From a virus (Duplodnaviria > Caudoviricetes): a stretch of DNA of 54,391 nucleotides. Within the stretch, counting starts at the first letter, position 1. Each line of letters begins with the position of its first letter. Below the pieces are notes generated by a model. That model was not told the origin of the DNA. It searched no databases and was given only the letters and a program-made list of their open reading frames with translations. Location: positions 1 to 54,391 of the IMG/VR virus record IMGVR_UViG_3300009168_000014; one strand, written 5' to 3'. Below, piece by piece: positions 669 to 52,700 of the stretch. The translations under genes and the position numbers were made by a program.

Positions 669-2999
669 ATGGCAATAGATACACAAAAATACATATCATA
701 CCCACTGGCCACACCAGGGATGGACAGGAGCCAGCCAGAGAACCAGGTGAAGGTAGGAGTATTATCGAAGGTGGTGGGAGCTGATGGACGGTTCACCGGA
801 GGGATACGGAAATTCTACGGAATGAAACTCCTGTATGACCTCGCAACCGTGACGGGGATGACTGCTTTGGATGATTATGGTGGTCCCAGCTTTTTCAGAT
901 ACGTCGAGTTCCAGAAGCGGGGAACCTCCATACTAACGAAGGGCTTTGTGATTAGATGGGATTCCATCAACAGTACCAGTGACCAGAGGATAGACTTGGT
1001 TTACACCGAAGACTCTGGAACCACTTGGACGAAACTGGAGATTTGGAATTCTGGTAACAGTATTACCAGCACTACAAAAATTGACTGCTGTACAGACAGT
1101 TATTTCTTATATGTTTTCGTCGAGGGAAAAGCAGCAAAGACGGTTTATTTTAATTCTACTTATCACGTGGTGGATATGGGTCCAGGCTCCTCCGCCTCTC
1201 CTTATTCAGTCATCGACTTCTCTTCTTCAACGTCTATCGGAGAATTTTCCAGTACAACAGCAGCCTCCTCCGCTTCACACTATTTAGACGGCAGTAGTAA
1301 ATATCAATTTGCTTTTCGTTTTTATAGTACTGTCCGTAAGATATATTCAGCTATGAGTACTGTTAGTACAGTAGTAACCTCAACAGCCTCATCCTATAAG
1401 GTTACGGCGATTGTCCCACTAGCAAAGATTGGGGCTGCGTGGAGTCTCGGATATGACCAATGCCACTTCTATCGGTCTATTACACTGGCGGGGAGTGCTA
1501 CGGCTATTCTCTATAAGGAAGGGTCATCGGCCACGTATAATTCTCTTCTAGATGGGGTATATCCCTTAACGTATGTCTATGGGACAATATTAGATGATGC
1601 TCTGCCATTCTTTACATCCTATAGCGGCCAGACGGATTCCATCCTTTCGGCTATACCACAATCCGGTGTTTGTGCAAGATATGAAGGATTGACACTAGCG
1701 GCTCAGTCTCCTTCCGTTGATGGGGGATTTGGCACCTACTACAGCAGTATACTACAGGAATCAGCGGAGTATTTCTCTACCTACAATCTATATAAAGGAG
1801 AGGCAATGCTGGGACGTCCTGTACGCTACATTCCAGCGGGAGATTGTCTATTTCTCTTTACACAGAAGGGAATTGTACATATAAAGAAAATAGCGGCGGC
1901 AAAACCCCTGCAATTTACGGTTCTACATAGGGACCATAGCTTAGTGAGTCCAAGTGCGGTACACCCGATGGGTAATAGTGTTTTCTATCTCTCCTCGGCT
2001 GGACTGATGATTCTTAGCTCGGCAGACGGGACACTGACACAATTAACGGCAGTTGACAGGACACTGCTGGAGGATTGGGCTGGAGATTTGTCAACAATCC
2101 AGAGTGCCTATGATGGGAAAGCCAGTGCGTCATACTTCCTTAACTCGTCTGATGGGACAGTGCTTACGATTTACCATTCAACACAGACTTGCAGCATGTG
2201 GGAGGCCGCACCGTTTACCCAATTGACATCTGGCACGGATATTCTGACGGGGCAGGAAACACAGGCCTACTTCATAACGGCACAGGGAAGAGTTGTCTAT
2301 CCAGACTTAGCGGCCACAGGTAGCGGGACTATGACGGATTTGAGTGCAACAACCCACACCTTGAATGGAACCTTTACGGAGAGCTCGTTTTTGTATGACC
2401 ATCCGACGTTAGGGGAAGTATCGGGTGTCAAAAGCACTATAGCAAAGGGCACGAACTCTCTGATTGGCAGTTATATCGGCATCACATCGGGAGCGATGGC
2501 TGGAGAATTACGCAAAATCCTTGGTGTAGGTATAGGTAGTGGAGATGTCGATACGACCTACTATGTATCACCGTATCCAGGTGATAGGGCTAGCAGTGGT
2601 GTTGTTGTTGGTGGAGATACTTTCGCCATCAGTCCCGTCGTATTCAAGATACGGGGGTGGAGAATAACTGACCCAGACCCACGAAGGGCGGCGGATTCCT
2701 TTATCCGGTGGGTGTTGCGGGGAATCACCTTGAAGCTTCGGCAGTTGTCAGGGTTCACCACTCCTAATCCAAACCTCTATTTCAGGTGTGGAGCCTACCG
2801 GAATAATGCAACTACGGTAACTGGAACATGTTATGTACCAGTCAGTACTACGCCTACTACAGCGACTCAGCAAATCACCGGCGGACTCGACGGTATTGAC
2901 ATAGAACCATATGTGGAACAAATCTCATCTGGAACGAAATTTGAATTGACAAACATAGAGTTAGATGTTAGAATGAGTGAAAGCAGGAAAACTAGTTAG
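669..2999 (+). CDS. Putative tail tubular/nozzle protein (T7 gp12 / P22 gp10-like)
   Basis: 776 aa, beta-rich; placed before the internal proteins; SVFYLSSAGLM segment and C-terminal FELTNIELDVR are typical of this class. Confidence 0.55.
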   Translation: MAIDTQKYISYPLATPGMDRSQPENQVKVGVLSKVVGADGRFTGGIRKFYGMKLLYDLATVTGMTALDDYGGPSFFRYVEFQKRGTSILTKGFVIRWDSINSTSDQRIDLVYTEDSGTTWTKLEIWNSGNSITSTTKIDCCTDSYFLYVFVEGKAAKTVYFNSTYHVVDMGPGSSASPYSVIDFSSSTSIGEFSSTTAASSASHYLDGSSKYQFAFRFYSTVRKIYSAMSTVSTVVTSTASSYKVTAIVPLAKIGAAWSLGYDQCHFYRSITLAGSATAILYKEGSSATYNSLLDGVYPLTYVYGTILDDALPFFTSYSGQTDSILSAIPQSGVCARYEGLTLAAQSPSVDGGFGTYYSSILQESAEYFSTYNLYKGEAMLGRPVRYIPAGDCLFLFTQKGIVHIKKIAAAKPLQFTVLHRDHSLVSPSAVHPMGNSVFYLSSAGLMILSSADGTLTQLTAVDRTLLEDWAGDLSTIQSAYDGKASASYFLNSSDGTVLTIYHSTQTCSMWEAAPFTQLTSGTDILTGQETQAYFITAQGRVVYPDLAATGSGTMTDLSATTHTLNGTFTESSFLYDHPTLGEVSGVKSTIAKGTNSLIGSYIGITSGAMAGELRKILGVGIGSGDVDTTYYVSPYPGDRASSGVVVGGDTFAISPVVFKIRGWRITDPDPRRAADSFIRWVLRGITLKLRQLSGFTTPNPNLYFRCGAYRNNATTVTGTCYVPVSTTPTTATQQITGGLDGIDIEPYVEQISSGTKFELTNIELDVRMSESRKTS

Positions 3000-3009
3000 G
3001 AGATAGTCT

Positions 3010-4890
3010 ATGGCAACAACCCTCCAGGATTTATATAAAAGTATGCTTATTGGTGATGGAAGCATGGTGTCGGGGTATGACCCAACCTCTATGGTGAAGG
3101 CGGCGGCGAACAATCCCAATAAGAAGCTGGATTTTGGGGCCGTTAGTGGAAATACCTCTACTCCAACCTCGTCTGCTGTTAGAACCGCAGTGACTGGGCT
3201 TAATAATAAAACACCTACGGGAGCCGTTACACCTGGGACCACCACACCAAAGATATCCGCTGAGATTATAAAGGGTATGCAGACACCGACTATGCCTAAT
3301 ACCAAGACGTATGACCCGACCCAGATAACCCAGCAATTTAAGGACGCCGAGACGAGGAAGATGTATAATGTGACGGGTACACAGTCTGGTATGGCCGCCT
3401 TAAATGAGCGGTTTAAGGGTAATATAACGGAAAGAGGAAAAGGTAACTATGCAGTGGGTGGGGTGGCCCCAGGCGTTGGTGGCAGTGGAATTGTGACAAC
3501 AGTTGACCCTAACTCCAAGTTCTATCAGACGTTAGATACGTTGACACAGATGGGATTGGAATTAAAAATCCCGAATATTGAAGGTCTTTTGAGTCAGATA
3601 GAACCAGGTGATAATGCTGCACTCGGTAGGATACAGGCTGGGATGATGGACTATGCAACCAAAATCGACGCCACAGGAAAAACAGCAGCACGGCTACAGG
3701 GTGCTTTTGATATGATTAATCAGTCGAATATCAACTATCAATCACAGTTGGATGAATCCCTGAAGAATGCCGATAAAGGTAGTGTACAACTCCAGAATAT
3801 ATGGAAGATGAATATAGACAAAGCCGACGAGTATGTGGCAAATGCTAACAACCGAATGGCTGATGTAATGGCAAAGATTGAAGCTATCCATGCCGATACA
3901 ATGAAGGCAATGGGTGATTTCAGCGTTAAGATAGACCCATTTAAGTGGGACCCTCCAAAGGTAGAGGAGTCCTCTAATTTAGCTAAGATGTCTGCCCATG
4001 CTATGCAGGCTTCTGTGCAGGCAACGATGGGAGCTTTTGATAGCGTTAAGCAGGAAATAGCTGGCCGATACGGTGCAGATAGTCCGGAGATGCGGGAGTT
4101 GAATGCGAAGTATAATGCCTCCCTTACCGGAATACAAAGTACCATACAGGTGGAGTTTGCGAAGTTGCAGGAAACCTCCAGAATGCAGAAGGAACAACTG
4201 GCATATATGGAGAGTATCGAAGCGAACAAGAACTTCAATTCCTACTCACAACATGCTCAGGATATTAGTTTAGCTGCCCAGACTGCGTTGCTACAGGCTA
4301 GAACCAATGTAGCGACATCTGGTGAGGCTAGTATGATAAAAGCTATGACTGATATGTCGATGTACATCAACTATCACGAGCAGATGGCTATGCAGACGAG
4401 AGCCCAGTATGCAACAGCAACGGCAGAGGATAACCTCAAACGAACCCAGCTGGATTTGCAGGTGGCACAGTTGAAGAATCTTGGCTATACTGATACAGCG
4501 AACTGGTTGGCCTCTATGCCAGAATACACCATAGAGCTTGGTGGTCTTATGGAAATTATCGTGAATAGTCTGCCGCAGAATGATGCTATGCAACAGTCGA
4601 TTAACGGTGGCAATAGGGGATATGTCCCATCAGGGAATGCCTATCAGCCTGCACCAGCTACGACGTTCCCACAATTGAATACACAGGCGGGAGTGAAGAC
4701 TCCTACACCTGCTGTGAAGACTCCTACGTCAAATCCTAATCAAGTTCGACAGGATGGAACAACGAGACTCCAGGTAAATCAGGCGAAGAAAACCCAGCAG
4801 ACAGCTGCTAAGACTCTTAATAATACCGGTATGAGTTCTTCTCAGGTATTTAATAATAATAATTTACTATCCTCAAAACTATATGGCTAA
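3010..4890 (+). CDS. Putative internal virion/ejection protein
   Basis: 626 aa, A/Q/M-rich and helical; follows the tubular-like gene. Confidence 0.45.
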   Translation: MATTLQDLYKSMLIGDGSMVSGYDPTSMVKAAANNPNKKLDFGAVSGNTSTPTSSAVRTAVTGLNNKTPTGAVTPGTTTPKISAEIIKGMQTPTMPNTKTYDPTQITQQFKDAETRKMYNVTGTQSGMAALNERFKGNITERGKGNYAVGGVAPGVGGSGIVTTVDPNSKFYQTLDTLTQMGLELKIPNIEGLLSQIEPGDNAALGRIQAGMMDYATKIDATGKTAARLQGAFDMINQSNINYQSQLDESLKNADKGSVQLQNIWKMNIDKADEYVANANNRMADVMAKIEAIHADTMKAMGDFSVKIDPFKWDPPKVEESSNLAKMSAHAMQASVQATMGAFDSVKQEIAGRYGADSPEMRELNAKYNASLTGIQSTIQVEFAKLQETSRMQKEQLAYMESIEANKNFNSYSQHAQDISLAAQTALLQARTNVATSGEASMIKAMTDMSMYINYHEQMAMQTRAQYATATAEDNLKRTQLDLQVAQLKNLGYTDTANWLASMPEYTIELGGLMEIIVNSLPQNDAMQQSINGGNRGYVPSGNAYQPAPATTFPQLNTQAGVKTPTPAVKTPTSNPNQVRQDGTTRLQVNQAKKTQQTAAKTLNNTGMSSSQVFNNNNLLSSKLYG

Positions 4891-4910
4891 AGGCCGATTA
4901 GGAGAGAAAT

Positions 4911-6041
4911 ATGGTAGCAGGTAATATACCGAATATGGGTCCCATCATACCGATGGGGAATGACCCTAACGTATTGCAGAGTATTCACGCTGGGAACCAA
5001 TTGCAAACCCAGAGGGATACAGCTGTCTATAATGCACAGCAACAGAAAGAGATAGTGTCGATGGAGCAACAGGGAGCTATGGAACGCCAGCTCCAACAGC
5101 AACGAGAGCAGGAACTTGAGAGGAACTTTCAGAGGAGCCTAGCTGAATTTAATATGCAGGCATCTGAGAGGATGTTGAATCTAAAACGTAGCTACGATGT
5201 ATCTGATAGAGATATGTGGATAGAGAAGCAAGACGCCTATCAAAAAGATAAGATGTCCTATGACCAGGAGCTCCTAACCAATCAGAAGTGGATGAATATG
5301 TTGACACTGAAGATGCAACTCGCCAACCTAAAGCAGACTGGAATGGGTCAGGAGAAGATGCAGAAAATTATGCAGACACTTATCCAGAAAGGTGAGGAGT
5401 CTACGAATCTTCGTCGGGATTTTGAAACGACCCTGAGTAGGGCTGGAACGGCTGCCGATACGTTGGATTTCGACCCTCTGGTGGTCCCAGTTGATTCAAT
5501 GGGCAAGGTGTTGCCGAATTTAGTAGATGGATTATTTGGTGGTATAACAAAAAATGCAACATTAGAGACACTGGAAGGAGACTCAAAAGCCCTAGAAGCT
5601 TTAGTGGCTCAATCCCGTGGAACTGATAAGGAACTGGGAGCCGCACATTTAGCCCATCTTGGAACTGTCTTAGAAGGTATTCAATCTACGATAACACAGA
5701 AAATAACAGATAAATCTGGAGACGCTTCCCCAACAGGGAAAGTGACATTGGCGAGATTACGTGATGCTAGGGCACGGATAAATAAAGCGGCCCTCAACCT
5801 TGACAGCCTCATCAGTAGTTCTGACCCTTATGTGGCTCAACTGAGTAAACGAGCCCAAAGTATGCGTCGAGGTGGCTCTGTCGGAGACGTACTTCGAGAA
5901 TTAGTCGATAAGTCCCCAGCTAAGACGTGGGATTTTGACAGTGTATTTAATTCATTGAATAAAGAGATGGGCAATATAGAGAATATCCCATCGGAATTTA
6001 GAGATGTTTTTGGGATTATACAATCTTTTGGAGGTAGATAA
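4911..6041 (+). CDS. Putative internal virion protein
   Basis: Coiled-coil, Q/E-rich, 376 aa; AGGAG RBS. Confidence 0.45.
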   Translation: MVAGNIPNMGPIIPMGNDPNVLQSIHAGNQLQTQRDTAVYNAQQQKEIVSMEQQGAMERQLQQQREQELERNFQRSLAEFNMQASERMLNLKRSYDVSDRDMWIEKQDAYQKDKMSYDQELLTNQKWMNMLTLKMQLANLKQTGMGQEKMQKIMQTLIQKGEESTNLRRDFETTLSRAGTAADTLDFDPLVVPVDSMGKVLPNLVDGLFGGITKNATLETLEGDSKALEALVAQSRGTDKELGAAHLAHLGTVLEGIQSTITQKITDKSGDASPTGKVTLARLRDARARINKAALNLDSLISSSDPYVAQLSKRAQSMRRGGSVGDVLRELVDKSPAKTWDFDSVFNSLNKEMGNIENIPSEFRDVFGIIQSFGGR

Positions 6042-6043
6042 CG

Positions 6044-6475
6044 ATGCATATTGCAATTCTATTAGCACTCCTCGGAGCTGGATTTGCACTAAAAGACCTC
6101 TTACCATTTAGTGCAGCACAGAAGGGTATTAAGCTCCAAGAGGGAATGCTGGGACTAGAACGTGACAAGATGAAGACCTCTAATGATGCCCAGAAGAAGA
6201 TGATGGAAGTCCTGATGGGTATGCGGACTGCTGAACGAGAATCCGAGAGAGCCACTAAAAGAGAAGAACGCCTGTTAGTTACTGGTGAGAAGGCTGCTGA
6301 TAGGGAATCAGAATTATTGCAACAGGCTCTTCAGATGATGCAGATGGGTGAGACACAGCGGATGGCTCTTAACACACAGGGAATGGGAGCTATAGCAGGT
6401 GCAATGGGTAATACGCCTCCAAGAAGACCAGAACCCATAAATCCATTATCAATGATTAACGCTCTACGTATGTAA
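6044..6475 (+). CDS. Putative ejection protein with hydrophobic N-terminus
   Basis: N-terminal hydrophobic helix followed by coiled coil; GGAGG RBS. Confidence 0.4.
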   Translation: MHIAILLALLGAGFALKDLLPFSAAQKGIKLQEGMLGLERDKMKTSNDAQKKMMEVLMGMRTAERESERATKREERLLVTGEKAADRESELLQQALQMMQMGETQRMALNTQGMGAIAGAMGNTPPRRPEPINPLSMINALRM

Positions 6476-6491
6476 TTATAGGAGATAGACA

Positions 6492-7475
6492 ATGCCTACT
6501 GTTCCGGAACTTATGAAGCTATTAGGTACTAATAGTATCAGCAGTGACCCTGCTATTATGAACGCTATTAATACAGCCAGCAGTGTATCTGGGAGTGACC
6601 CACAAACACTGTTGCAGATGATACAATCACGCAGTGTTCCAAGCTTGGCTCCTAAATCAGGACCAGGTGCGACTATAGGGAAACTGCGGGGACTCTCTAA
6701 GGCGAAACAACTGGAACTAAAGAATCTATTCCGAAAACTTCTGGGAACCACAAAACAAGCAAAAGGTTCTCCGACAAAGGTGAATGACCTTCTGACCCAG
6801 ATAGGTAATTTGGTCGGAGCCCCTCCTGAAGGTGCATTCGTTGGACCTGAGCTTGGCTTATGGCAAAAATCGCCAGCCGGTCTTATTAATAAACCTCCAC
6901 AACCAGAAGTAGGAATGACGGACGACCTCGCCTCAATTATGGCAGAGGGGATGGGCGGAAGAACTCCTAAGTTTAATCGAACTGCTAGGACTGCGACTTC
7001 TGCTGGAACCACAACGGGTGGGGGGTCGTGGGTAGATGACTTACTGGGAATGCTGGGAATGGGAAAGAAAGCAAGAGGAGGCGGGAAGCTGAAGGTTGCA
7101 GTAGCCAAAACAGTTGCTCCTGAAGTAGCGGCTGGCAGTATGGGTAAATTCCTGAAATTTCTTAAGGCTAATCCTACGATGGCTGGATTGCTGATGGGCG
7201 TAGCAGGCACGGCTGCGGGCACTGGAGCAGGTGAACTAGCGATGTCACTGGCTCCTGGAAGCCCAGAGAACCGGATGTTCACAGCTCAACAGAAACACAT
7301 AGAAGGCCTCAGAGGTCTACAGGACCCAGATGCACTGGTAGCACAACAGATGATACCTCTACTGATGGCTCAATTGCAAGGGGGTGGTGGACTCCCGCCA
7401 GGGATGCTGATGCCTGGGATGACGCCTGGGACCACCAACGTACCTGGGGAAGAAATGATTGGAGGACCTCAATAA
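6492..7475 (+). CDS. Putative internal virion/ejection protein, G/A-rich
   Basis: AGGAG RBS; G/A-rich hydrophobic stretch near the C-terminus. Confidence 0.4.
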   Translation: MPTVPELMKLLGTNSISSDPAIMNAINTASSVSGSDPQTLLQMIQSRSVPSLAPKSGPGATIGKLRGLSKAKQLELKNLFRKLLGTTKQAKGSPTKVNDLLTQIGNLVGAPPEGAFVGPELGLWQKSPAGLINKPPQPEVGMTDDLASIMAEGMGGRTPKFNRTARTATSAGTTTGGGSWVDDLLGMLGMGKKARGGGKLKVAVAKTVAPEVAAGSMGKFLKFLKANPTMAGLLMGVAGTAAGTGAGELAMSLAPGSPENRMFTAQQKHIEGLRGLQDPDALVAQQMIPLLMAQLQGGGGLPPGMLMPGMTPGTTNVPGEEMIGGPQ

Positions 7476-7494
7476 GCAGTAGGAGTTGATAACT

Positions 7495-10400
7495 ATGCCA
7501 GTCCCAACAAAGCCAAAGGAGTTTGCAGACTTTCCACTGTCTATCTATGATAGGCCTTCTATCGCCGCCAGCAACCTAATGGTGGGGAATGTAGGTGGAG
7601 CTTTCGATGCTCTGTTCAAACCTGACGATATGTCCCCCGATGAGATTAAGACAATTCAAAACCGCTTCCTATCTGGAATCAAACGGGAGAACATCCTTGT
7701 AAAAACCGCTATTGATATGGCAACGAATCCCTTAGTGATTATCGGGCTGGTTATGGGGATGGGGCCTTGGGGTAAAGTAGCGGGTCTGCGTAGTATGGAA
7801 GCTTTAGGTAAGATGGGCAAGAAGATTATCGGTCCACCTAACGCCAGTATTATGAGATATATGAGCTCTGGAACGGTCTTCCGTAATATAAAAGGCTTCG
7901 TGGATAAGATGATTGATGTATCCAAGAGAACCGCAGACTTCTACGAAACCAGCATAAAAGCAAAACAGTTAATCTTCGAGGGGGCAGGTCGTGCCCTGAC
8001 GAAGGAAGAACGAATGCTGGTATTTATGTATAACAAGAAATTCAACACCGTAGATAATGAACTACAGACATATTGGAAAGCATTCATAAGAACAGATAAA
8101 CCACTGACTCCAGACCTCCAACGGCATATGAAACCTGAAGTACTAAAGGTTGCCAGACAGTTGCAGGAACTCACAACCAAGCTGGGTAAGGATGTAATGC
8201 TGGATAAGGATGGCAATGTTATCCGTGACTTAGCCGCTAAGGGAACCATCTGGGATGAGGATTATGGAGCCCCCAATGTTATTCGACAGAATAAGTTTCG
8301 TGAGTATATCTATGAGTCCGCTGGAGATAACGCTACTCGTCGCAGATATCTACAGAGGGAACACGGCTTAACTAGTGGGGCATCTGGACATACAAAGGCA
8401 AGGAATCACTTCACACTTCCAACTATAGAGGATATGCAACTGATGAAGAAATATTGGGACCCAGAACAGTGGGATGCAGTAATGAGATTAGAGGAAAAGA
8501 CTATCGGAAATGTCCGACGTGTACTACAGGAAACAGTAGACGAGACCCGTAGTTATTATGCAGCAAATAAATCTGTATGGGGAGAGGATGAGGTAGCTGA
8601 GAAGCTTGCCCCTAAATTAAAGAAGGCATCCGAAGTGATAGTGCACCATCTATCAACTCTGGGGGCCGATGAGCCGGCTGTCCTGAAGAGAATATCCAAA
8701 GAGGTACTGAATATCTCTATGCGGAACCCTGAAGAAGGCAGTGTATTTATCGACCTGATGGCTCGGAAACTGGGAGCCCCAGCCCGCTACATAATGGATA
8801 TGGATGATGTAATGAACCACTACATCCGGAGTATGGCTCCGACATATGCCTGGTTTACTCCCACAAGTGCGAACAAAACTGTCGGATTAGGACGGGAACT
8901 GGAAGATATGATACAGGGTGCTGGTTTTACTCCTGAAGCAGATATGCAGAGAACCATCTATGGGGATAGTGTAAGACCACTACTCAGAGGATTTATGCAT
9001 CCAAATGAATTCCTGCGGTCATTAGCCCATACTTCACGTGTTGCCAAAATGCGGGAAGTACTTTCAACAGACTGGGCTCGGAAGTGGATACCTAATAATG
9101 GGAGACAATGGATGATGGACTCTCTGGCGAAGAGTACCAGTATGGATGTCGGAAATCAACTGGCTAGTATGTACTACCTGTCTACACTTGGAATGAATAT
9201 CGCCAATGCTACGAATAATGCTTTCCAGCCGTTCATCACGACTGTTAATATGGTTGGCCCAAATGCAATGGGAAAGGGAATGTGGAGAGTCATGTCCGGT
9301 CTTAAGACAGTTATGAAGGAAGGGCCGACGGTTGGATGGGGCAAAGCCTTCTCAGAGACCTTCAAGGAGTATACGGAGCATTTTGGACATGAGAATATAT
9401 TGGCAGCTATGACCCGTGGTGATATTCTACGGGAAGATATAATGCAGTCGCCGCTGAAGGGAGCATGGGAAAAATTCAAGGGGGCTATCCAGTTGCCGTT
9501 TGGAGCCACTGAAAAGTGGGATAGGCTGATTACCTTCTATGCTGGACACGCCAAAGCTGTCTCAGAAGGTGCGGAGGCCATCGAAGCAGGCACTCTGGCT
9601 AGGAACCTAGTACAGATGACGCAGTTTACAGGTGGTGTGGTTGGACAGCCAATCGCCCTACAAGGAATGTGGCAACCTCTACGGCAGTACCTACATTTCC
9701 CTATGAGATATATGGAGTATATGTATAATACTCTAAGTATGGGTCCCGAACCCGCAAAGCTATCTTTGGGAGTAATGGGACGAACACTGGCTGGGAGTGC
9801 CGCTGCTTACACGGCTGCGAAGAACTTAGGTGGAGTAGATATTCATAGGGGTCTATTGTTTGGAGCCCTGCCTATTCCAGAATATGATAAAGCTCCATTC
9901 TATCCGTGGCCTCTAGTGCCTCCTGCTGTAGGTATGGTGGGAGATATAGCCCAGTCAGTATTGAAGGGTGACTATAAGGGCTTGGCGGGTCGGGTCGGAA
10001 GCATGGTGGTCCCAGGAGGTTTAGCGATACGTAGAGCATATCGAACTCTGGCTCCAAAGTATGCAAGATACGACCAACGCACTCCGGAAGGAAGAATCCC
10101 AATTTTCAATGACTCTGGGACCCTCGTAGGGACACGAACTCCGATGGAGCTGACCTTACAGTCGGTCGGAATTAAGCCGATGGGACCCCAACAAGAGCAG
10201 GCAATGATGAAATACCTGTTGAGACAGCGGGATAAGATACGTGAGTATAGAAGGCGATATGTTTCCTCTATCGTGGATAATGATTTGGAGACATCAAATA
10301 AAATACAGGCTGAGTTCCAGCAGGAATATCCTACACTCGGCGAGTTGACCTTCAGGAAGTCGGATTTAGGATATGAGAAACAGCGTAGGACGATGGACAG

Positions 10401-12479: not shown

Positions 12480-12480
12480 A

Positions 12481-12645
12481 TTATGCCCTTTCTTTCATAA
12501 GTTCCTCTAACATTTCCGCACACTCTGTCGCCTCCTTCTCACTATCGAAGCTCAGGTGGAACTGAAAGTTAGAGACCACACCTACAGCTCTTGCTAACAA
12601 GCCATCATTCTCTGTTGCATAGGTCTCGATAATACGTATAGACAT
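12481..12645 (-). CDS. Small hypothetical protein (54 aa)
   Basis: Fills the gap between same-strand genes; ATG preceded by GGGAG; too short for the ORF track. Confidence 0.5.
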   Translation of the reverse strand: MSIRIIETYATENDGLLARAVGVVSNFQFHLSFDSEKEATECAEMLEELMKERA

Positions 12646-44315: not shown

Positions 44316-45242
44316 ATGCCGGAACCAATTGTAACACCTACCACCCCAGAAGGGACTCCCACCATACCTCCTGTTACAGGGGCACCTGGGACCACCCCTC
44401 AACCCCAGCAACAGATATTTACCATCAAGGTGAATGACCAGCAGAGGTCGCTGACGATTGATGAGCTCAAAGAGGCTGCATCAAAGGCTATGGGGGCCGA
44501 TGCAAGATTTGAGGAGGCGGCGAAGGTACGTAAGGAGAATGAGAAGGCTACTCGGCTGTATCAGTTGATGCAGGATTTGAAGAATAATCCAGACCCTGCG
44601 AAGGCGACGGAAGTTTTAGGTTTAATTGGCGTTACGCCAGAGGAGATACAGGCGATGGAAACTACACCAACTGTGGCACCCCAGAATGCTATCCAACCTG
44701 GAGCTAATGTCGGAGTGCAGACGACGCCGAGAAAGGTGTCGCTACAGGACTTAGACCCGCAACTGCAACAGCATATCCAGACGGTATCGGATGTGGAAGT
44801 GGCGAATGCAAGAAAAAATATTGAAGAATCTGTAAATAATTCTCTTGACACTGATGCAGTTCTTGGTAAAATAGTATTAAGTAGACCTGAAGGCTCTCCT
44901 GAAAGGGAAACCATTAGGTCTGTGCTCTATGACATGACAATAGATGAGGTCCAGCGTAGGATTTTATGCGGTGGAGAATTTGGACCCCTTATGGTCAAAG
45001 ACGCTTTGCAAAAAGTTAGAGCGAATGTTGACCGTATCGGTATTCCAGCTAGAGCTGTTGGGTATCCAGGACTTGGCGGTCTTGGGCCTAATCCGTCTTT
45101 AGGATACCAGCCCATAACTACGTCAACCGAGCCTATCCAGCGGGTAGGTATTAATGACCCGAAGTATCATGCCACTGCCAACAATAGGCTACAACAGATG
45201 TTGAATATGGCGGCAATGGGATTGAGAAAGAAGGGACGATAA
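44316..45242 (+). CDS. Putative capsid scaffolding protein
   Basis: Between portal and MCP; FTIKVND....LT.DEL......GAD.RF pattern. Confidence 0.6.
   Translation: MPEPIVTPTTPEGTPTIPPVTGAPGTTPQPQQQIFTIKVNDQQRSLTIDELKEAASKAMGADARFEEAAKVRKENEKATRLYQLMQDLKNNPDPAKATEVLGLIGVTPEEIQAMETTPTVAPQNAIQPGANVGVQTTPRKVSLQDLDPQLQQHIQTVSDVEVANARKNIEESVNNSLDTDAVLGKIVLSRPEGSPERETIRSVLYDMTIDEVQRRILCGGEFGPLMVKDALQKVRANVDRIGIPARAVGYPGLGGLGPNPSLGYQPITTSTEPIQRVGINDPKYHATANNRLQQMLNMAAMGLRKKGR
44845..44872 (+). promoter_or_regulatory. Internal sigma70-like promoter upstream of the major capsid gene
   Basis: TTGACA-16-TAAAAT with TGG before the -10. Confidence 0.5.
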
Positions 45243-45374
45243 TACTAGCGACTGGTAGCTGCGAAAGCAGAGCTAGTCTCCTTAAGGGTAACAGGTAAGC
45301 GGGTGGCTAATTGATGCTATGTCACAATAGTGTTATTAACCAAATTGATTATCTTTTACTATAGGAGACATATT

Positions 45375-46895
45375 ATGGCTGCTGAATATGCAATAGAAGT
45401 TCTTAGTGATTATATCCGTGAGGAATTACCGACTGTCGTGGACGAGTGTCTGCCAGCGATTTCCCCCGTATATAAGTATATTGAAACCACTTCGATGGGT
45501 GTTGTCAGAGACCGCATAGGTCGTAACTGGCAGATTGAACACACCTACGCAACTGGTCTGGCTGGTTTAATCCAGTCTGCTGATGTTAGAGGTCCGGCAT
45601 TTCTTGATGCGGCAGATTATACACAGAATAGAGTTCTGGACTCATCCAGTGCTAATTTGACGCCGTTCCCAAATGCGATTCATGCTCCGCATTCGGCCAG
45701 CATTCAGAGGATACTGACCCTCCATAAATCAACTGGAAACTTCAGTATTCCCGTAGCTTGGATACAGGCAGACTCACTGGGTGCATCGGTTCATAGCAAG
45801 GTTACGCAGGATATTAAGGCAGTTGGACAGCTCAGAGCTTTGACAGAAGCACAGAGCTTCTTCATGGGTTCTAGCAATGCCCTTGGTCAGTTGTTAACCT
45901 ACACAGGTACTGGTGAAGCCAGCGGTTACTTCACCTGCACGCTTGACCAGACGACTGGCAGGACAGCTTTCTTGCGTCCTGGTATGTTGGTCGATGTTTA
46001 TGCCAATAATTCCGGTACTCCAAACTGGGGCTCGACTGGTGGCACACACCACAAGAATGATACTTCGACTGGTGCCCCGTGGGGTACAACCTATGTTCCC
46101 CTGATTATCTCTGATATTGATTACACGAATGGCACAATCAAAGTCGCTGCTGTCAGGAATACATCTTTGGCATCTGGCTCCATCACACAGATTGCCATAG
46201 GCGACTGGCTCGTGCTGGCAAACTGTGGAACTACCTCTGGTCGTGAGATGAAGACATGGGGTCTCGAAGACTGGATTAAGAGTAGTGGAACGATTATGGG
46301 TGGCTCTGGCGGGACAGAAGTTCTTGACCTCGATACCTACAGTCAGTTTAAGTCGATAGTGGCTGCTGTAAATGGCCCACTCACCGATAGTGTCCTCAAC
46401 AAGTATGTTGGTGGATTCCTTGATGCCTATACTGGTACGGAATTGGACACCTTTATCACAACTACTGGTGTTACCATGAAGTATCTGGAACAGCCCACGT
46501 TGTCAAACAACAGGATGTTCTACGATAGAACCGGCAAGGCTCTCTCCGTGATGGGTGGTTGGGACGATGTCGGTTACAGCTTCAACGGCAAGAAGTTCAA
46601 CTGGATTACCTCCTCGATGTGTCTGGCCGGTAGGCTGTATGCCATCAAACTTGGTGGCGGTAATTTGAAGAAATACGTACCTCCGAGGATTGGCGGAACT
46701 GACGGAAGAGTAGGGACAGACCTTGAGTTCCTTGCTCCGTTGGGTGGCTCCAGTGGCATATTCATGGTAGCACGGTCAAGTACCGGTGCGGCTATGGAAG
46801 TGCTGGAAGCACCGTTCTGGCAGTATTGCCTGATTGCTCCAGAGGAAGTTAAAGGAGTCAAGTTGACTGGTCTTACTGAGTCAACCTTGTACTAA
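45375..46895 (+). CDS. Major capsid protein
   Basis: AGGAG RBS before ATG 45375; follows the scaffold gene; GLEDWI and C-terminal GVKLTGL are typical. Confidence 0.7.
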   Translation: MAAEYAIEVLSDYIREELPTVVDECLPAISPVYKYIETTSMGVVRDRIGRNWQIEHTYATGLAGLIQSADVRGPAFLDAADYTQNRVLDSSSANLTPFPNAIHAPHSASIQRILTLHKSTGNFSIPVAWIQADSLGASVHSKVTQDIKAVGQLRALTEAQSFFMGSSNALGQLLTYTGTGEASGYFTCTLDQTTGRTAFLRPGMLVDVYANNSGTPNWGSTGGTHHKNDTSTGAPWGTTYVPLIISDIDYTNGTIKVAAVRNTSLASGSITQIAIGDWLVLANCGTTSGREMKTWGLEDWIKSSGTIMGGSGGTEVLDLDTYSQFKSIVAAVNGPLTDSVLNKYVGGFLDAYTGTELDTFITTTGVTMKYLEQPTLSNNRMFYDRTGKALSVMGGWDDVGYSFNGKKFNWITSSMCLAGRLYAIKLGGGNLKKYVPPRIGGTDGRVGTDLEFLAPLGGSSGIFMVARSSTGAAMEVLEAPFWQYCLIAPEEVKGVKLTGLTESTLY

Positions 46896-46902
46896 ACGAA
46901 TG

Positions 46903-46958
46903 TTAGGGACCACCAAGGATGGGAGTTTCTGCTCCTTTCTCCTGTCCTTGGCCCCTAA
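46903..46958 (+). terminator. Hairpin after the major capsid gene
   Basis: CCAAGGATGGGAG pairs with CTCCTGTCCTTGG; flanked by TTAGGG/CCCTAA; no U-tract. Confidence 0.5.
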
Positions 46959-46987
46959 AATATTAGAAATAATTTGGAGGTTAAACA

Positions 46988-49348
46988 ATGTTAATAGTCG
47001 ATGCAATTAATAGGTATGGTTCTATCATGTTGCCATCCCTCTTAAATAGAGCCAACGGAAATATCTATTTTGTGGATTCCGGCAATACAGCCGGAGCCCT
47101 CAACGCCGATGATGGTGAGCATGGTCAAACGTGGGAAAAACCCTTTGCCACAATTGATTATGCCGTAGGTTTCTGTACGGCAAATAACGGGGATGTTATT
47201 CTGGTGGCCCCAGGTCATGCAGAATCAATGGGGCTGGCTGGAGCTGCTGCGGTTGTTTTGACGGTGGATGTGGCTGGTATAACCATCATAGGACTTGGCG
47301 AAGGTGCGGCTCGTCCCACCCTCACTAATGCTAGTAATGTTGAGGTAGTACTAGCGACGGTCTCCGCAGCGAATGTCACTATTAAGAATTTGCTGCTGTA
47401 TACGAATGTGGATGCTGTCGTCCAACAGATGACAGTGACCGGCAGTGATTGTACACTTGAGAATGTAGAATTCAGAGATGCCGCCTCGAATAAGGAAACC
47501 CTCAGTCAGTTGGTTGCTACTACGGTATCAAGACTGCACGTCAAGGATTGTTTCTTCAACGGCTCGGTTGCTGGAGACGCATGTCTAAGGCGTATTGGCC
47601 TGGCTGCCGTTACAGATGCACTCATTGAAGGATGTATCTTCAAAGGTGTTGCAAGTACATCAGAAATTGATTTGTCAGGAACTCTCAGTACAGGCGTTAA
47701 AGTCAAGGATTGTATATTCCAGAATACCGGTACGGCTCTGACGAAGAATGTTGTGGACACCATCACAGGCAGTACGTGGTCGGTCATTAACAGCTTCGAT
47801 GTGATTGGAAACTATACATTCTCCGGTGGAACAGGCGTGGCGGTAGCTTCAGACGATGCCGGAGCGATTGCGACTGCTGTTAGTGGTATTAATACTGACA
47901 CTTCTAAGATTGAAGATGCCGCACTGACTGGAACGCCCACTACAAGTTCTCTCTCGACGTTTATAGCAACTGGTGGCACTGCATTAGGTACTGCCCTCCC
48001 TGCAAGTACATCATTGTATGATGTTGTAAAAGCATTGTACAAGACAGCAGCGGGCACGGGAGTATACCCGACTGGCGTAACCGATGACAGCATTATAGCA
48101 ATGATGCTGAGCAAATCGGCCACGGCCTCGGCATCTAGTTATGATAACACGACAGACTCACAGGAAGCTATAGCTGATGCAGTTACTCTGACAGCTAAAA
48201 CGACGGAATTACTGAGTGCTGGAACAAATGATTTGAATGCTACATGTAAAGCATCTATTAATACAGAAGCCGATTCAGCACTGAGTGACATCAATGCAGA
48301 CCATCTGGCGAAGGTAGCTTGCGGCACGATTACAGACCCAATAGGAATGGCAGAAATAACTGACCACTCCATATTGGCCAATGTATTGACAGATGATGGT
48401 GACGCATCGGATTATGATAGGAGATACCACTCGATAGAATCACTGGCGAAAATCCTACAGATTCAGATGGGTTATCAAATGAGGTCGATTGCTGGTTCAG
48501 CTATGCCGATTGCCATATGGTATGTCGATGCAAATATTGCTGCGTCTGGTGATGGCAAGACTCCTGCAACAGCATTCAAGACTATGCAGGAAGCTATTAC
48601 TGCGTGTACGACTACGGCCGATGACTGGATTTTGGTCTACGACTACTCAGGTGGCGACACCGCAACCATTACTATAGATAAGCCGTTTGTGCATATCATA
48701 GGTAATGGCTGTAGAGGTATGGCTTATCCTCGTATTATGCCGACTGGTAACTTTGATGGCATCACTCTTACGGCGGCGGCCGATAGGGTAGAGATTGCCA
48801 ATATGGTTATTGGTGGCGGTACACAGGGCTATTCAGCTATCGCATTTGATTCCGCTGCTGGTGCTTATGGTGTTTACATCCATGATTGTGTCTTAGGCCG
48901 TGATGCCAATGCTCCTGCTCTCTACGGTATCTCTATACCGGCGGGTTCAGATGCTCCATATCTCGTTGTGGATAACAACAGATTCTATGGGTCTGATGGT
49001 GCTGGTATCGCAGCGGCTGGCAGTGCAATTCGTATAGCCGGTAACGCTACACACGGTGAGATTACCAACAACTTCATTCAGGATGTTGGTAGAACCGCAA
49101 CCCCAGCGATTTGGGTTGATGGTTCAGGTGTGAACCTCCGTATCGAAGGTAACAGGATTAAAACTGATACCGATACAGGAACTGGCAGTGCGATTACGCT
49201 AAGTGCTAATGTAGACGACAGCTGGATTGCAGGCAACTGGGCCAGTGATGGCAAAGATGCTCCTGCACAGAATCCGTTTGTCGATGGTGGCAGTACCAAT
49301 GGATGGGCTGAGAACTACTCAGGAATCGTAGCAGTATTACCTGCTTAA
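46988..49348 (+). CDS. Virion protein with two parallel beta-helix (pectin lyase-like) modules
   Basis: Two caps (IYFVDS...GQTWEKPFATIDYAV...DVILVAPG and IWYVDA...GKTPATAFKTMQEAI...DWILV), each followed by beta-helix repeats. Confidence 0.7.
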   Translation: MLIVDAINRYGSIMLPSLLNRANGNIYFVDSGNTAGALNADDGEHGQTWEKPFATIDYAVGFCTANNGDVILVAPGHAESMGLAGAAAVVLTVDVAGITIIGLGEGAARPTLTNASNVEVVLATVSAANVTIKNLLLYTNVDAVVQQMTVTGSDCTLENVEFRDAASNKETLSQLVATTVSRLHVKDCFFNGSVAGDACLRRIGLAAVTDALIEGCIFKGVASTSEIDLSGTLSTGVKVKDCIFQNTGTALTKNVVDTITGSTWSVINSFDVIGNYTFSGGTGVAVASDDAGAIATAVSGINTDTSKIEDAALTGTPTTSSLSTFIATGGTALGTALPASTSLYDVVKALYKTAAGTGVYPTGVTDDSIIAMMLSKSATASASSYDNTTDSQEAIADAVTLTAKTTELLSAGTNDLNATCKASINTEADSALSDINADHLAKVACGTITDPIGMAEITDHSILANVLTDDGDASDYDRRYHSIESLAKILQIQMGYQMRSIAGSAMPIAIWYVDANIAASGDGKTPATAFKTMQEAITACTTTADDWILVYDYSGGDTATITIDKPFVHIIGNGCRGMAYPRIMPTGNFDGITLTAAADRVEIANMVIGGGTQGYSAIAFDSAAGAYGVYIHDCVLGRDANAPALYGISIPAGSDAPYLVVDNNRFYGSDGAGIAAAGSAIRIAGNATHGEITNNFIQDVGRTATPAIWVDGSGVNLRIEGNRIKTDTDTGTGSAITLSANVDDSWIAGNWASDGKDAPAQNPFVDGGSTNGWAENYSGIVAVLPA

Positions 49349-49384
49349 TAGTGTTGGTTAGTTACGGAAAGGAGTATGTAAAAA

Positions 49385-49774
49385 ATGCTCGGTGCAATAT
49401 GCAGATTTCGCAAGGACCAACACCGTATTATCCATCCGAAGTTCGAGAATTGGATTAAGAGGCATGTCCCTGATGAAAGACTCAGGGACAGCCTTTTTGT
49501 TTACTACCATCGGATACATAAGACCTTTGTTGTAGCCCAGTGGAAATCATATAAGCGGGGATTTGTAGATGTATTGAATTTGGATACAGAACCACGATTA
49601 TATCCCGAACAGGCTAAACAACTTTTAGATTCACTTCGTCATCCCGTCAGCGGCCACGAGATTGCAGAAAACCTACGGCTGTCTGAGTGGGACCAAACAA
49701 CGAATCAATCACAACTACGACAACACGTTGGAGAGTTACAGACATGGAAACCCAAAATACAAATAACAGTGTAG
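49385..49774 (+). CDS. Hypothetical protein
   Basis: AAAGGAG RBS. Confidence 0.55.
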   Translation: MLGAICRFRKDQHRIIHPKFENWIKRHVPDERLRDSLFVYYHRIHKTFVVAQWKSYKRGFVDVLNLDTEPRLYPEQAKQLLDSLRHPVSGHEIAENLRLSEWDQTTNQSQLRQHVGELQTWKPKIQITV

Positions 49775-50067: not shown

Positions 50068-50079
50068 TCTGGAACCACA

Positions 50080-50550
50080 ATGGCATATATAAGTCCTACA
50101 TCAACTAATACTCCATCTGGATGGACAGACCCATCTTATGCCATCGATGGCGATGTCGAAATTTACGCCGTTGATGGTTCTGTTCCAAACGAGACTGGTG
50201 TATACGGCAATCCGTTAACTTTTAACTTGGGCGGAACTTATAATATAAACTCAATTCAGTATTGGGGTGAACAAAACAATGAATCCGCACAGGGCGACTT
50301 GTATATCAAAATTGATGTTTATAACACATCAAATTCTACATGGGAAAATGTGTATCAGGGCCAAAAACTGACAAATCCGTCCATACCTCAAACCGTAGAT
50401 TTCACAACTAAACCAAGTGATAAGTACCGTATTTCGCACGCTTTAGAGCTTGGCGACCCTTACGGTGATGGTGTTATAATGTGGGAAACTAAGTACCAAA
50501 AAGCCTCTTCAGCAGTGCCCGCAATATTAAGATTAAGGAATGATATATGA
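50080..50550 (+). CDS. Discoidin/F5-8-like carbohydrate-binding virion protein
   Basis: PSYAIDGD...LTFNLG..Y.I.SI...W..V...KYRI...WE pattern. Confidence 0.55.
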   Translation: MAYISPTSTNTPSGWTDPSYAIDGDVEIYAVDGSVPNETGVYGNPLTFNLGGTYNINSIQYWGEQNNESAQGDLYIKIDVYNTSNSTWENVYQGQKLTNPSIPQTVDFTTKPSDKYRISHALELGDPYGDGVIMWETKYQKASSAVPAILRLRNDI

Positions 50551-52700
50551 GTCAGGAATTAAAAGTATCAACTGCAAGCCAGAAGGTTTTAGGGATTGGG
50601 TTCTATAGTCCCTCAGATGGCGTCACTCCCGTGACCCCCCCTGCCGACCTAACCGGATACAATGCCTCGAATAAACGGGCTAAGTTCGTGAAGGCGGATG
50701 GGTCGATGGTTGACCTGGCAAGCTACACGTTGAGCACTCTATCAAACTTTGAAGGGCAGGCAACCCTGACACTGGCCAATAATACAACTGATACCAATAC
50801 TCTGGGAGATGCAAAAATAATTATTGAGGACCACGCAACGCATTGCCCGATAGTAATATCACTACAAGTTGTCAGTGCACAATACTGGGATGCTAAGTAT
50901 GGAACGGGTAATTTCTCGGCGGATGCAAAAGTAGTTTCTGATAAGACGGGATATGCTTTAGTATCTACAGGTCTTGATGCTGTTACAGCATTTGGTACAG
51001 GCTCGGCTATGAAGGCAGTTAAAGATAAAACAGATAATCTTCCTGCATCTCCAGCAGCAGTGGGTAGCGCTATGACGCTGGCTGATGCTTCAATTAAAGC
51101 GGCGACCTTTGATGGGACAGGGGCATTTCCACTGGCGGCGGTGGATAGCGGTACCACACAGATAGCAAGAAGAGGCAGCACTGAAATAAACATAACAACC
51201 CTCAATACGAACCTGACTACACTGCTAAGCGATACTGCAAATATCCTGGTGGATACTGGATTGATTAAAGGGTATACAGATGGGGCGGAGGCTGCAATAA
51301 CTACGGTTGAGGGGAAAATAGATACAATAGATACTAATGTGGATACAATTAAGACACATAGTACGGCGATAAACGGGAAGCTTCCGACAGCGGCATATTT
51401 AACTGGAACGACTGAGGCAGACGGGACTATTAGTGCACACGATTTGAATGATATTGGTATGGAGATTATGTCCCATAGCGGAATCTTCGGGCCTGGGAAT
51501 AACCAGATAGTCTTGACTATTCGCACAACTACAGGAACGACTATTCCGGAGTGCGAAGTGTGGGTAGGGGTTTCCAACGACCCATCAACTTCGATTGTAC
51601 AACCAGCTTTTACCAGCTCCAGAGGCACGGTTGCCTTTATGTTGGAACACTTAACAGGCACGGATTACTACTACGTATTCTGCCGGAAGACAGGATATGG
51701 CTTTAATATGACATCTCCGGCTAATAGGTTCCAACCAACGGCACTTGTGGAAGCTTTCACGTTTGATATTGGTGCCGTAGCGACTCTTGGTTCCACTAGT
51801 TATACCTCGGATAGTTTTATCACAAGAGCCCTGGCGAAGATTAGGGAACAGGTGGATGAGCCAGCGTTGAATGCAAAGTATAGTGATACAACATTGATTG
51901 CCCTGATGGAACAGAAGTATCCAGAGATTCTTGGGGAGATTAACAGGAATAGCCAGACACCAGTTGTGGCGAGGACGACTGTTACCTATGATGGGACAAC
52001 GGAAGACTATATGTTGCCAAGTACTATTGGAACTATTGTGGCTATATATACCCTTGAATCAACGGGGTACAAAACCTTCTATGAGAGTATGGGACAGTAT
52101 AATACCGCTGGCCGTGGAATCTGGCTGGAAGGTAACAATCTACATGTCCAGTCTGGTATACTAAATACCAATACGGTTATCACAATAGAATCCCTGCCTA
52201 GCGGGATAGCCAGACTCTGCAACGGCACTTGTACAATAGCCTCCGATGGACTGTCAGCCACACTACCGGTTAGTGCACTAGTGGGTACACGAGACTTGCA
52301 CGAGGAGGCCTATAATGGTAGTGTATTTAGGCTACTGCGAAGTACAGAATCAGCATACGACACTATTCAAGATAGACTGATAACTAGTTATGATGCCCTG
52401 ACGAGGGTAGCCACATTCGATAAAGCTTTGTCCCCTATCCCATTATCTGGGACCACCTACTTTGAGATTGCACCGCATATGATGTATTCGCTGGATATGG
52501 TAATTGCAACATATGTTGCAGCAAGAATCTCTGCAACCGAAGGTAATATGGAACGGTCAAATGCTCTGATGGCTTCTTATCGGCAGACCCTTAGACATCT
52601 GAGGTTATCGGCCTTTTACTCAAATCTGATGGAAGCCGCAAAACAGAAAGGCGATAGTTTCGACCAAAGACGCTATAGGCAGAGGAGTCGTTATACTTAA
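50547..52700 (+). CDS. Virion protein with a C-terminal head-tail adaptor / tail tubular A-like domain
   Basis: IREQVDEP...YSD..L...Y.LPS adaptor-like region; N-terminal coiled-coil and beta domains. Confidence 0.5.
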   Translation: MSQELKVSTASQKVLGIGFYSPSDGVTPVTPPADLTGYNASNKRAKFVKADGSMVDLASYTLSTLSNFEGQATLTLANNTTDTNTLGDAKIIIEDHATHCPIVISLQVVSAQYWDAKYGTGNFSADAKVVSDKTGYALVSTGLDAVTAFGTGSAMKAVKDKTDNLPASPAAVGSAMTLADASIKAATFDGTGAFPLAAVDSGTTQIARRGSTEINITTLNTNLTTLLSDTANILVDTGLIKGYTDGAEAAITTVEGKIDTIDTNVDTIKTHSTAINGKLPTAAYLTGTTEADGTISAHDLNDIGMEIMSHSGIFGPGNNQIVLTIRTTTGTTIPECEVWVGVSNDPSTSIVQPAFTSSRGTVAFMLEHLTGTDYYYVFCRKTGYGFNMTSPANRFQPTALVEAFTFDIGAVATLGSTSYTSDSFITRALAKIREQVDEPALNAKYSDTTLIALMEQKYPEILGEINRNSQTPVVARTTVTYDGTTEDYMLPSTIGTIVAIYTLESTGYKTFYESMGQYNTAGRGIWLEGNNLHVQSGILNTNTVITIESLPSGIARLCNGTCTIASDGLSATLPVSALVGTRDLHEEAYNGSVFRLLRSTESAYDTIQDRLITSYDALTRVATFDKALSPIPLSGTTYFEIAPHMMYSLDMVIATYVAARISATEGNMERSNALMASYRQTLRHLRLSAFYSNLMEAAKQKGDSFDQRRYRQRSRYT

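Follow-up and report, generated by a model that had tools for sequence, protein, structure and literature searches.

Evenly Spaced, Alternating Words in the Genomes of a Tailed-Phage Clade as Possible Start Signals for DNA Synthesis

The virus record IMGVR_UViG_3300009168_000014 (Caudoviricetes) is a stretch of 54,391 bases that we analyzed over its whole length and call the window. It is a complete record, in which a 123-base-pair (bp) terminal repeat closes the sequence into a circle of 54,268 bp. The 11-nucleotide (nt) word CTGGGACCACC occurs in it in 17 exact copies, 9 on the plus strand and 8 on the minus strand. The count expected by chance is 0.04, the mean of 100 dinucleotide-preserving shuffles, none of which gave more than one copy. 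The copies alternate between the strands, related phages carry words of their own, and the base composition of the word-bearing strand changes at the sites in a fixed direction. This pattern is real, selected, clade-wide, and polar. Our preferred reading, to which we assign a probability of about 0.38, is that the words act during phage replication as strand-specific signals at which DNA synthesis starts, with the word-bearing strand as its template.

An earlier note on this DNA had listed the 17 exact copies, and all of them were confirmed in position and strand. Its two near copies sharing the core 9-mer GGGACCACC (29594+ and 46904+) were likewise recovered, which brings this core to 19 copies in the window. 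When up to one mismatch to CTGGGACCACC is allowed, 20 sites are found, as compared to 1.04 expected. The three extra sites are CTGGGGCCACC at 3462-3472 (-), a possible minor site; CTGGGGCCACC again at 47203-47213 (-), inside a 14-kilobase (kb) stretch devoid of exact minus-strand copies; and CAGGGACCACC at 29594-29604 (+). Two mismatches are present in TAGGGACCACC at 46904-46914 (+), an intergenic site after the capsid gene, and in CTGGAGCCACC, a weaker variant found once at 46743-46753 (-). Another weaker variant, CTGGAACCAC, occurs three times on the plus strand. At 1015-1025, the site reads CTGGAACCACT, the core of the word of relative G002, and at 7003-7013 and 50069-50079, it reads CTGGAACCACA.

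Fourteen of the 17 exact copies lie inside open reading frames (ORFs), seven sense and seven antisense, showing that their orientation is independent of transcription. Every sense copy reads (P/S)GTT. PGTT is found at 3233-3243 (+) in ORF 3010-4890, at 7426-7436 (+) in ORF 6492-7475, at 15394-15404 (-) in the Sak4-like gene 14488-15444, and at 41338-41348 (+) in TerL. SGTT is found at 21070-21080 (-) in the PolA gene 19369-22011 and at 52447-52457 (+) in ORF 50547-52700, and the seventh sense copy, at 44386-44396 (+), lies near the N-terminus of ORF 44316-45242. Six antisense copies read VVP, and one, at 879-889 (-) in ORF 669-2999, reads GGP. The remaining antisense copies are at 5480-5490 (-) in ORF 4911-6041, at 10005-10015 (-) in ORF 7486-10626, which encodes a 1046-aa protein with a conserved VPGG peptide at this place, at 13142-13152 (+) in ORF 12648-13901, at 18820-18830 (+) in the overlap of ORF 18412-18852 with the ERCC4 nuclease gene 18800-19369, at 28679-28689 (-) in the JAB-domain gene 27678-29786, and at 41075-41085 (-) in TerL, where the word encodes a conserved R/A-VVP-V peptide. 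The three intergenic copies are at 24907-24917 (+), between divergent gene blocks, at 34544-34554 (-), and at 37400-37410 (+), ~27 nt upstream of a TTGACA promoter-like repeat. These peptide readings and the three intergenic copies agree with the earlier note, which had concluded that selection is on the DNA. Synonymous-codon shuffles within genes (n = 300) retain a mean of 3.11 copies, including the three untouched intergenic ones, so that 0.11 coding copies are expected versus 14 observed, and the enrichment persists against these shuffles. The proteome offers 22 distinct protein-compatible places for the word, which is actually present at 14 of them. At 8 of 11 sites inspected in conserved proteins, the word fills aligned columns with no insertion, two of these sites being the conserved peptides VVP of TerL and VPGG of the 1046-aa protein; the other three are in unaligned or gapped regions. 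The flanks of the copies are unrelated beyond ~3 nt. A mobile miniature repeat is thus ruled out, because the word occupies aligned columns without insertion and its flanks show no similarity. Selection acts on the DNA and not on the proteins.

Neighboring exact copies in the window have opposite orientations in 13 of 16 cases (binomial tail 0.011). The alternation regardless of transcription that the earlier note had described therefore holds, and it withstands the two CTGGGGCCACC sites that the note had missed: with the three one-mismatch copies added, 17 of 19 neighbors are opposite. The exact copies are also more evenly spaced than random positions, with a coefficient of variation (CV) of 0.52 versus 0.92 (p = 0.004). 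On the two strands taken separately, the CVs are 0.44 and 0.43 versus 0.86 and 0.85 (p = 0.012 and 0.015), and the smallest same-strand gaps are 3048 and 4525 bp (p = 0.004 and 0.0007). Three gaps between a plus copy and the following minus copy are almost equal, at 2247 bp (3233-5480), 2252 bp (13142-15394), and 2250 bp (18820-21070). The chance of three gaps within 5 bp is ~0.002-0.004 when calculated post hoc, and the equality is not reproduced in relatives.

Relatives of the window phage were found through TerL and PolA at 30-52% identity. The best TerL match among 5.8 billion proteins is 54% identical; a megablast search of INPHARED with the window gave no match, and tblastn searches with TerL and PolA against isolates gave matches that were all below 27% identity, none of them a close isolate. 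Thirteen relatives each carry their own over-represented word of 9-13 nt, and so do 30 further loci. The word of the window is absent from the TerL/PolA relatives, and a cross-table finds the word of every relative at 0-2 copies in the other genomes. The earlier note had proposed to check whether related phages keep the motif; relatives 30-52% identical in TerL carry other words, making this the wrong test at such a distance. The words are CTGCGGGGC in G001 (29 copies), CTGGAACCACG in G002 (9), CTGCAGAGG in G003 and L159 (14 and 13), CTGTCCAAC in G004 (8), CCGGGAGAG in G005 (21), CTGCGGAGG in G006 and G007 (31 and 16), CTACAGGGGAC in G009 and L157 (3 and 6), CTGGGACCACG in L155 (6), which differs from the word of the window by one letter, and CTTCAGGGGG in L011 (4). 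G008 is a 99.6% duplicate of G004 and was left out of the pooled counts. Likeness of words tracks the TerL tree only in part, as in the G001/G003/L159 and G009/L157 groups, and the three genomes with words of the form CTGGRACCACS (the window, L155, and G002) are not mutual closest relatives on that tree. When all words are oriented alike, 13 start with CTG and the rest with CTA, CTT, CTC, TTG, or CCG. A pyrimidine usually stands just before the word, and a variable part of 6-9 nt follows the 5' trinucleotide.

The replication set of 30 loci was drawn from 80 viral loci found through a TerL alignment, 47 of which were new and at least 8 kb long. A word was assigned in 35 of these, and 30 remained after five near-duplicates (L293, L305, L307, L332, and L356) were dropped. 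The 12 loci left out for weak or ambiguous top 9-mers were L284, L309, L330, L333, L335, L338, L341, L342, L349, L350, L351, and L352. A second set, used for 15-mer containment, dropped L285, L345, and L346 as having doubtful words and added L352. In this comparison, 18 loci use CTGCGGAGG and have almost no 15-mers in common (median containment 0.003). Words of further new loci include CTGCAGGGG, CTGTCGGGG, CTGCCGGGA, CTGATCCGG, and CTGGTGGTAC, the last of which is the word of L352, with six copies there.

Retention of a shared word was examined in G006 and G007, which are 86-93% identical where aligned, since the collections searched held no closer relative of the window. All eight G007 sites that fall within alignments are intact in G006 (72 of 72 bases), their flanks carry substitutions, and the calculated chance of all being intact is ~3e-4. 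The word is thus kept while its flanks vary. For the most part, sites do not keep their positions between distant genomes. The N-terminal part of the gene homologous to 44316-45242 may be an exception; it aligns poorly, and in it G009, L157, and G002 have their own words, also in the sense direction. The capsid gene and the next two genes (window 45330-49774) are free of words in all genomes that have them (9, 5, and 6, respectively), and the flanking genes carry words. Words are found on both strands in every relative. Outside the window, 104 of 151 neighbors are opposite (p = 2e-6, where this and the other clade-level p-values overstate independence because related loci share ancestry), or 92 of 136 without G007, and the 30 further loci give 159 of 266 (p = 9e-4). 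Alternation is real across the clade, and it is statistical rather than strict.

The sites are also polar with respect to base composition. On the word's strand, GC skew at a distance of 3-100 nt is -0.108 5' of the word and +0.003 3' of it (Wilcoxon p = 6e-7, 160 sites), as compared to 0.007 and 0.003 at random positions. The step from the 5' to the 3' side is seen at sense sites (0.037 versus 0.173), antisense sites (-0.148 versus -0.079), and unclassified sites (-0.134 versus -0.027), so that it follows the word rather than the gene strand. At third codon positions, the step amounts to -0.133 (p = 4e-4) and at positions 1 and 2 to -0.098 (p = 9e-5), and it has the common direction in seven of eight single genomes. 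An interval test that cancels the background gave the same picture. In intervals running from a minus word to a plus word, top-strand skew falls by 0.145, from +0.040 to -0.104 (p = 0.002), whereas (+,-) intervals are flat (p = 0.8), which places the GC effect on the 5' side. The step was replicated in the 30 new loci, with values of -0.078 versus +0.032 at 3-100 nt (291 sites, p = 8e-13) and -0.068 versus +0.029 at 3-200 nt (p = 3e-16), and 25 of the 30 loci step in the same direction; the interval test shows the same tendency in these loci, more weakly. Across 438 sites, the A+C enrichment of the 5' flank extends for at least 600 nt and is highest within the first 100 nt; the 3' flank is neutral.

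Close pairs of words have a preferred geometry. Among pairs 150-500 bp apart, the CTG ends face each other (head to head) in 15 and point the opposite way in 2, and the corresponding numbers for the new loci are 31 and 10. The close pair of the window is formed by the two TerL copies, 41075- as its left half and 41338+ as its right half, 263 bp apart. Pairs of 114-118 bp recur in G005, G006, and G007.

These data lead us to propose the following mechanism. Each word would be read on the strand that carries it. Synthesis would start at the conserved 5' end, mostly CTG, and would copy that strand toward the 5' side of the word, where the partner strand would be left or displaced. The variable 3' part would serve as a lineage-specific address for a reader, perhaps a phage factor, which might recruit host primase. 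If forks or displacement tracts run both ways, each strand would need a signal every ~5 kb, and synthesis would start in both directions at a close head-to-head pair. Alternation would then follow from the even spacing on each strand, which sets a maximum distance between starts. We infer the direction of synthesis from the polar step, and priming as the event. An A+C-rich strand has a G+T-rich partner, which is the mark of a strand that remains single-stranded for longer in replication or transcription. The orientation given by the CTG rule agrees with the independently measured step in 25 of 30 loci. Bacterial DnaG primases recognize d(CTG), d(CTA), or d(TTA), begin synthesis at the middle base, and leave the 3' base uncopied (PMC2978363). 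A DnaG-type start at the CTG-type end would thus copy the same side as that marked by the composition step. Replication by displacement and annealing is plausible in this clade, given that it has PolA, a single-stranded DNA-binding (SSB)-like protein, a Sak4-like annealase, an exonuclease, and an ERCC4 nuclease.

Primase sites, exemplified by the DnaG trinucleotides and d(GTC) of T7 gp4 (PMC2978363), are strand-specific, and the words resemble them in this respect, in having a CTG/CTA-type end where copying would proceed and an uncopied 3' part, and in being needed on whichever strand becomes single-stranded. They differ from primase sites, which comprise 3-5 nt or hairpins, in being linear, lineage-specific addresses of 9-13 nt. 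A stronger form of the proposal, which we regard as doubtful, is a private address code in which a phage specificity factor directs priming or nicking only to the CTG-anchored word of its lineage, about every 5 kb per strand. The factor could be, for example, the tandem zinc-ribbon protein described below, acting like a detached zinc-binding domain of a primase. Such a phage would copy its genome by strand displacement and annealing from dozens of fixed starting points, and it would do so with no primase of its own. Specific priming signals (ssi) are known in plasmids such as RSF1010.

Several observations weigh against priming. Pfam and PHROG scans (48 window ORFs and 10 relatives' ORFs) detected no primase, HNH nuclease, integrase, or repressor, and none of five clade records, two of them complete, matched Toprim_2 or Prim-Pol profiles in six frames. 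The model therefore needs a host primase or an unrecognized enzyme. Known primases read 3-5 nt, far less than the length of the words. The interval test locates the change in GC skew on the 5' side and that in AT skew mainly on the 3' side, a split that simple deamination would not give, and the step could reflect selection rather than mutation. Alternation is weaker (60%) in the replication set, for which we picked the words by eye and used the CTG rule to orient them, and there is little of it in G005 (11 of 20) and L316 (9 of 19). The complete relative G001 is evenly spaced on one strand only (plus-strand CV 0.83), and the late region of the window has four plus copies in succession.

Site-specific nicking is a possible, though unlikely, alternative. 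A phage nickase would cut at each word, on the strand opposite the CTG-first strand if the step is a guide, and the resulting 3'-OH ends would prime strand displacement by PolA, or the nicks would mark packaged DNA as in T5, phiKMV-like phages, and tf. The nick motif of tf, TACT/RTGMC, has 14 sites in 46 kb and altered spellings in related phages (PMC3517423). Our words match this tf/LUZ24 motif in their length, asymmetry, exactness, and copy number and in their altered spellings in relatives; like the tf, T5, and phiKMV-like motifs, they are short and nearly letter-perfect, number ~5-20 per genome, and lie inside and between genes. The function of those motifs is not known even in the model phages. 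Nicking would also accord with a clade in which PolA and an ERCC4-type nuclease are present and no primase is found. Head-to-head pairs have the geometry of staggered nicks, which would give two-way starts or duplicated ends, and the polar step would fit displacement of the complementary strand equally well. However, the nick motifs described in the tf paper are on one strand only (PMC3517423), whereas the words described here are on both strands, alternate, are even on each strand, and carry a composition step. No such step is seen at the 14 mapped nick sites of tf (-0.046 versus -0.036, p = 0.7), in a comparison of low power. Six-frame searches of the five clade records gave no match to the endonuclease VII profile and one weak HNH match, in G006, and neither complete genome matched either profile. 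The same searches returned a DnaB-like match in G001 and a weak one in G006.

The words could instead be Chi-like polar signals at which a tracking nuclease, either a host enzyme of the RecBCD/AddAB type or a phage enzyme, is switched off or modified, with protection needed in both directions. Protection from breaks that can occur anywhere would select what is seen, namely polar words that are evenly spaced on each strand and alternate, and differences among lineages would be expected after host switches. Chi is likewise a polar word on one strand, read by a tracking enzyme, for which regular two-way spacing is beneficial. The L352 word CTGGTGGTAC includes seven of the eight letters of the Escherichia coli Chi sequence. 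Known Chi sites are 5-8 nt long and host-defined, and their variants have partial activity. The words are longer (9-13 nt), are lineage-private, have flanking preferences, and have few one-mismatch copies (3 versus 1.04 expected in the window). In addition, a 3' tail bearing Chi would leave the word's own strand exposed on the 5' side, and the simple expectation is then a step of the opposite sign. The 14-mer ACCTGGGACCACCA occurs in 87 other viral stretches, and none of them has a second copy of the word. Among the matches listed, 1 of 120 bacterial or archaeal stretches with this 14-mer has two copies. DNA uptake sequences (USS/DUS), by comparison, are a case in which the same word saturates the host genome. 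On balance, we regard the Chi-like explanation as improbable.

The interpretation given in the earlier note is partly supported, in that selection on the DNA and the alternation hold. The note had read the sites as a binding lattice, with loop anchoring for condensation, packaging, stepwise ejection, and paired protection as examples. The lattice would be bound by the zinc-ribbon protein, the winged-helix protein next to TerL, or the small terminase subunit, which would organize, package, condense, or regulate the genome. Just upstream of TerL lie the genes of two conserved putative DNA binders. One is a 199-aa protein with two Cys4 zinc-ribbon modules (36231-36830, +) of a type found at the N-termini of HNH/endonuclease VII proteins, and it has no nuclease domain. 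Its structural model (pLDDT, predicted local distance difference test, 69) returned only helical noise in a structure search, and its Atlas scores are below 0.9. The other is a 237-aa protein two genes upstream of TerL (37806-38519, +), the core of which (residues 44-98) is predicted to be a winged helix of the MerR/Xis/BldC type. Its model (pLDDT 61) matched MerR/Xis-type winged helices at a Z of only 4.5, and Foldseek returned nothing at E <= 0.001. The fold or motif of each makes DNA binding plausible, in line with the proposal of the note for the 36231 gene; for the winged helix, the plausible gene is the one at 37806-38519 and not the 34161 gene that the note had named. The winged-helix protein of the window is closest to that of L155 (34% identity, versus 19-25% to others), whose word nearly equals that of the window, and the recurrent 114-118-bp spacing of pairs in different genomes could reflect a bound complex. 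However, the parts predicted to read DNA, the recognition helix and the wing, are not the same in the window and in L155, although the two words are nearly identical, and neither the zinc-ribbon nor the winged-helix protein co-varies convincingly with the word, which leaves no tie between either protein and the word. A static lattice predicts neither the polar step nor orientation effects on the kilobase scale, and the loop-anchor, packaging, stepwise-ejection, and paired-protection models do not predict a polar step at each site. Stoperators of Cluster A mycobacteriophages are 13-bp asymmetric repressor sites, dispersed in 20-35 copies, with a spelling that co-evolves with a phage protein; they are mostly intergenic and oriented with transcription. 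The words are unlike them in that only 3 of the 17 window copies are intergenic, their orientation ignores transcription, and the Pfam scans found neither a repressor nor an integrase. We therefore consider a lattice improbable as well.

Less probable still is that the words are targets or by-products of modification or defense, such as sites of the MT-A70 methyltransferase encoded in the window or of a restriction-like enzyme that needs inverted sites. Inverted site pairs are the substrate of type III-like enzymes. Targets of nucleases are usually avoided, however, and not enriched ~400-fold, and neither even spacing nor the step would be expected of a methylation site. The methyltransferase was found in only 1 of 14 related records or loci (BLASTP at E 1e-5 and iterated profile search), many of which do not cover that region. 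Three other candidates were rejected. The words of relatives do not fit a mimic of a tRNA 3' end or primer-binding site, and the window has no tRNA gene. As mRNA promoters, the words would ignore the genes in their orientation, and all late-region copies would fire antisense. As sigma-54 -24 boxes, they would lack a -12 element after the word. A search of the literature on phage nick motifs, alternating motifs, both-strand nickases, and evenly spaced primase sites found nothing that describes such a pattern. As far as this literature goes, a signal of this kind has not been described for phages, in agreement with the earlier note, which knew of no such system.

The genes of the window form three blocks, on the plus strand (1-10.6 kb), the minus strand (10.5-24.7 kb), and the plus strand again (25.2-54.4 kb). 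If synthesis starts at the words, the polymerase that would extend from them is the family A DNA polymerase PolA (19369-22011, -), which has an N-terminal domain resembling uracil-DNA glycosylase (UDG) and an exonuclease. The ERCC4-type nuclease (18800-19369, -), a putative nicking or flap enzyme, is present in all six related records that cover the replication module. Other recognized genes of the window encode TerL, MazG, a ThiF/JAB pair, the Sak4-like ATPase, a PD-(D/E)XK exonuclease, the MT-A70 methyltransferase, a MazZ-like domain, and the SSB-like protein. The 417-aa protein of ORF 12648-13901 has, by eye, a Walker-A-like GAPGTSKT and a ...AATTN motif and may be an ATPase/helicase of the superfamily 3 (SF3) type. 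It has homologues in G003, G004, and L157 and none in the complete relative G001, which has a DnaB-like ORF instead. Its Atlas neighbors are phage hypotheticals, one cluster of which has PF00910 in 10% of its members. Sequence searches of the PDB with three large orphan proteins found nothing.

Several other features of the window and its relatives were recorded. At 35647-35783, iteron-like direct repeats of GTCGTTAGTCGTT are present in at least four copies within an 800-bp stretch (35426-36231) that has no ORFs of at least 80 aa; the repeat region may be a replication origin or a binding array. Between 34.4 and 37.5 kb, an A/T-rich stretch followed by CTTGAC or TGTTGACACG recurs at 34795-34835, 36131-36155, 37014-37038, and 37418-37445, resembling sigma-70 promoters. 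In L155, one full word followed by three overlapping tandem copies of GGGACCACG occupies positions 1405-1431, upstream of the homologue of the zinc-ribbon gene. The window encodes a MazZ-like dATP/dGTP diphosphohydrolase domain (PF18909) at 11452-12479 and MazG at 23829-24146, and an adjoining 229-aa ORF bears a resemblance, by eye, to a nucleoside 2-deoxyribosyltransferase. These three genes could change the nucleotide pool, and a modified base in the DNA is therefore possible. ThiF (E1-like) and JAB-domain genes at 26238-33397 adjoin a 69-aa ORF and a 1206-aa orphan, and only G004 yielded ThiF/JAB homologues. Some TerL genes of the clade are ~1015-1025 aa long, as in G003 (L056, 2056-5103) and in the database proteins P0077, P0083, and P0090. 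Intein or LAGLIDADG Pfam domains are present in the latter three, suggesting that an intein has been inserted into the terminase.

The phage was also found in sequencing runs, which we compared as assembled contigs. Six of seven runs contain at least part of the window, and none is recorded as RNA. In runs X2, X3, X5, and X6 (window 1200-21199; freshwater sediment and soil, several studies), the phage is present at low depth and is at least 99% identical. At the sites, these four runs showed no informative differences and no joints. Among the matches listed, a few contig ends of X5 and X6 come within 17 nt of a site at inconsistent offsets, and they are not counted as evidence. Polymorphism at 16728-16743 stems from the MT-A70 genes of other organisms.

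Our analysis indicates that the words most likely mark starts of DNA synthesis, whether by priming or, with lower probability, from nicks. If this is true, these phages would have a new way for a virus to organize its replication, using many addressable starts on both strands as opposed to one origin and random priming. The words are a ready computational marker, being lineage-private, easily found, and polar, and the composition step offers a purely sequence-based way to orient them. Experiments that map primers or nicks or that measure protein binding would have short, testable targets in them, and the words could help to answer the 60-year-old question of what purpose the nick motifs of T5-type phages serve.

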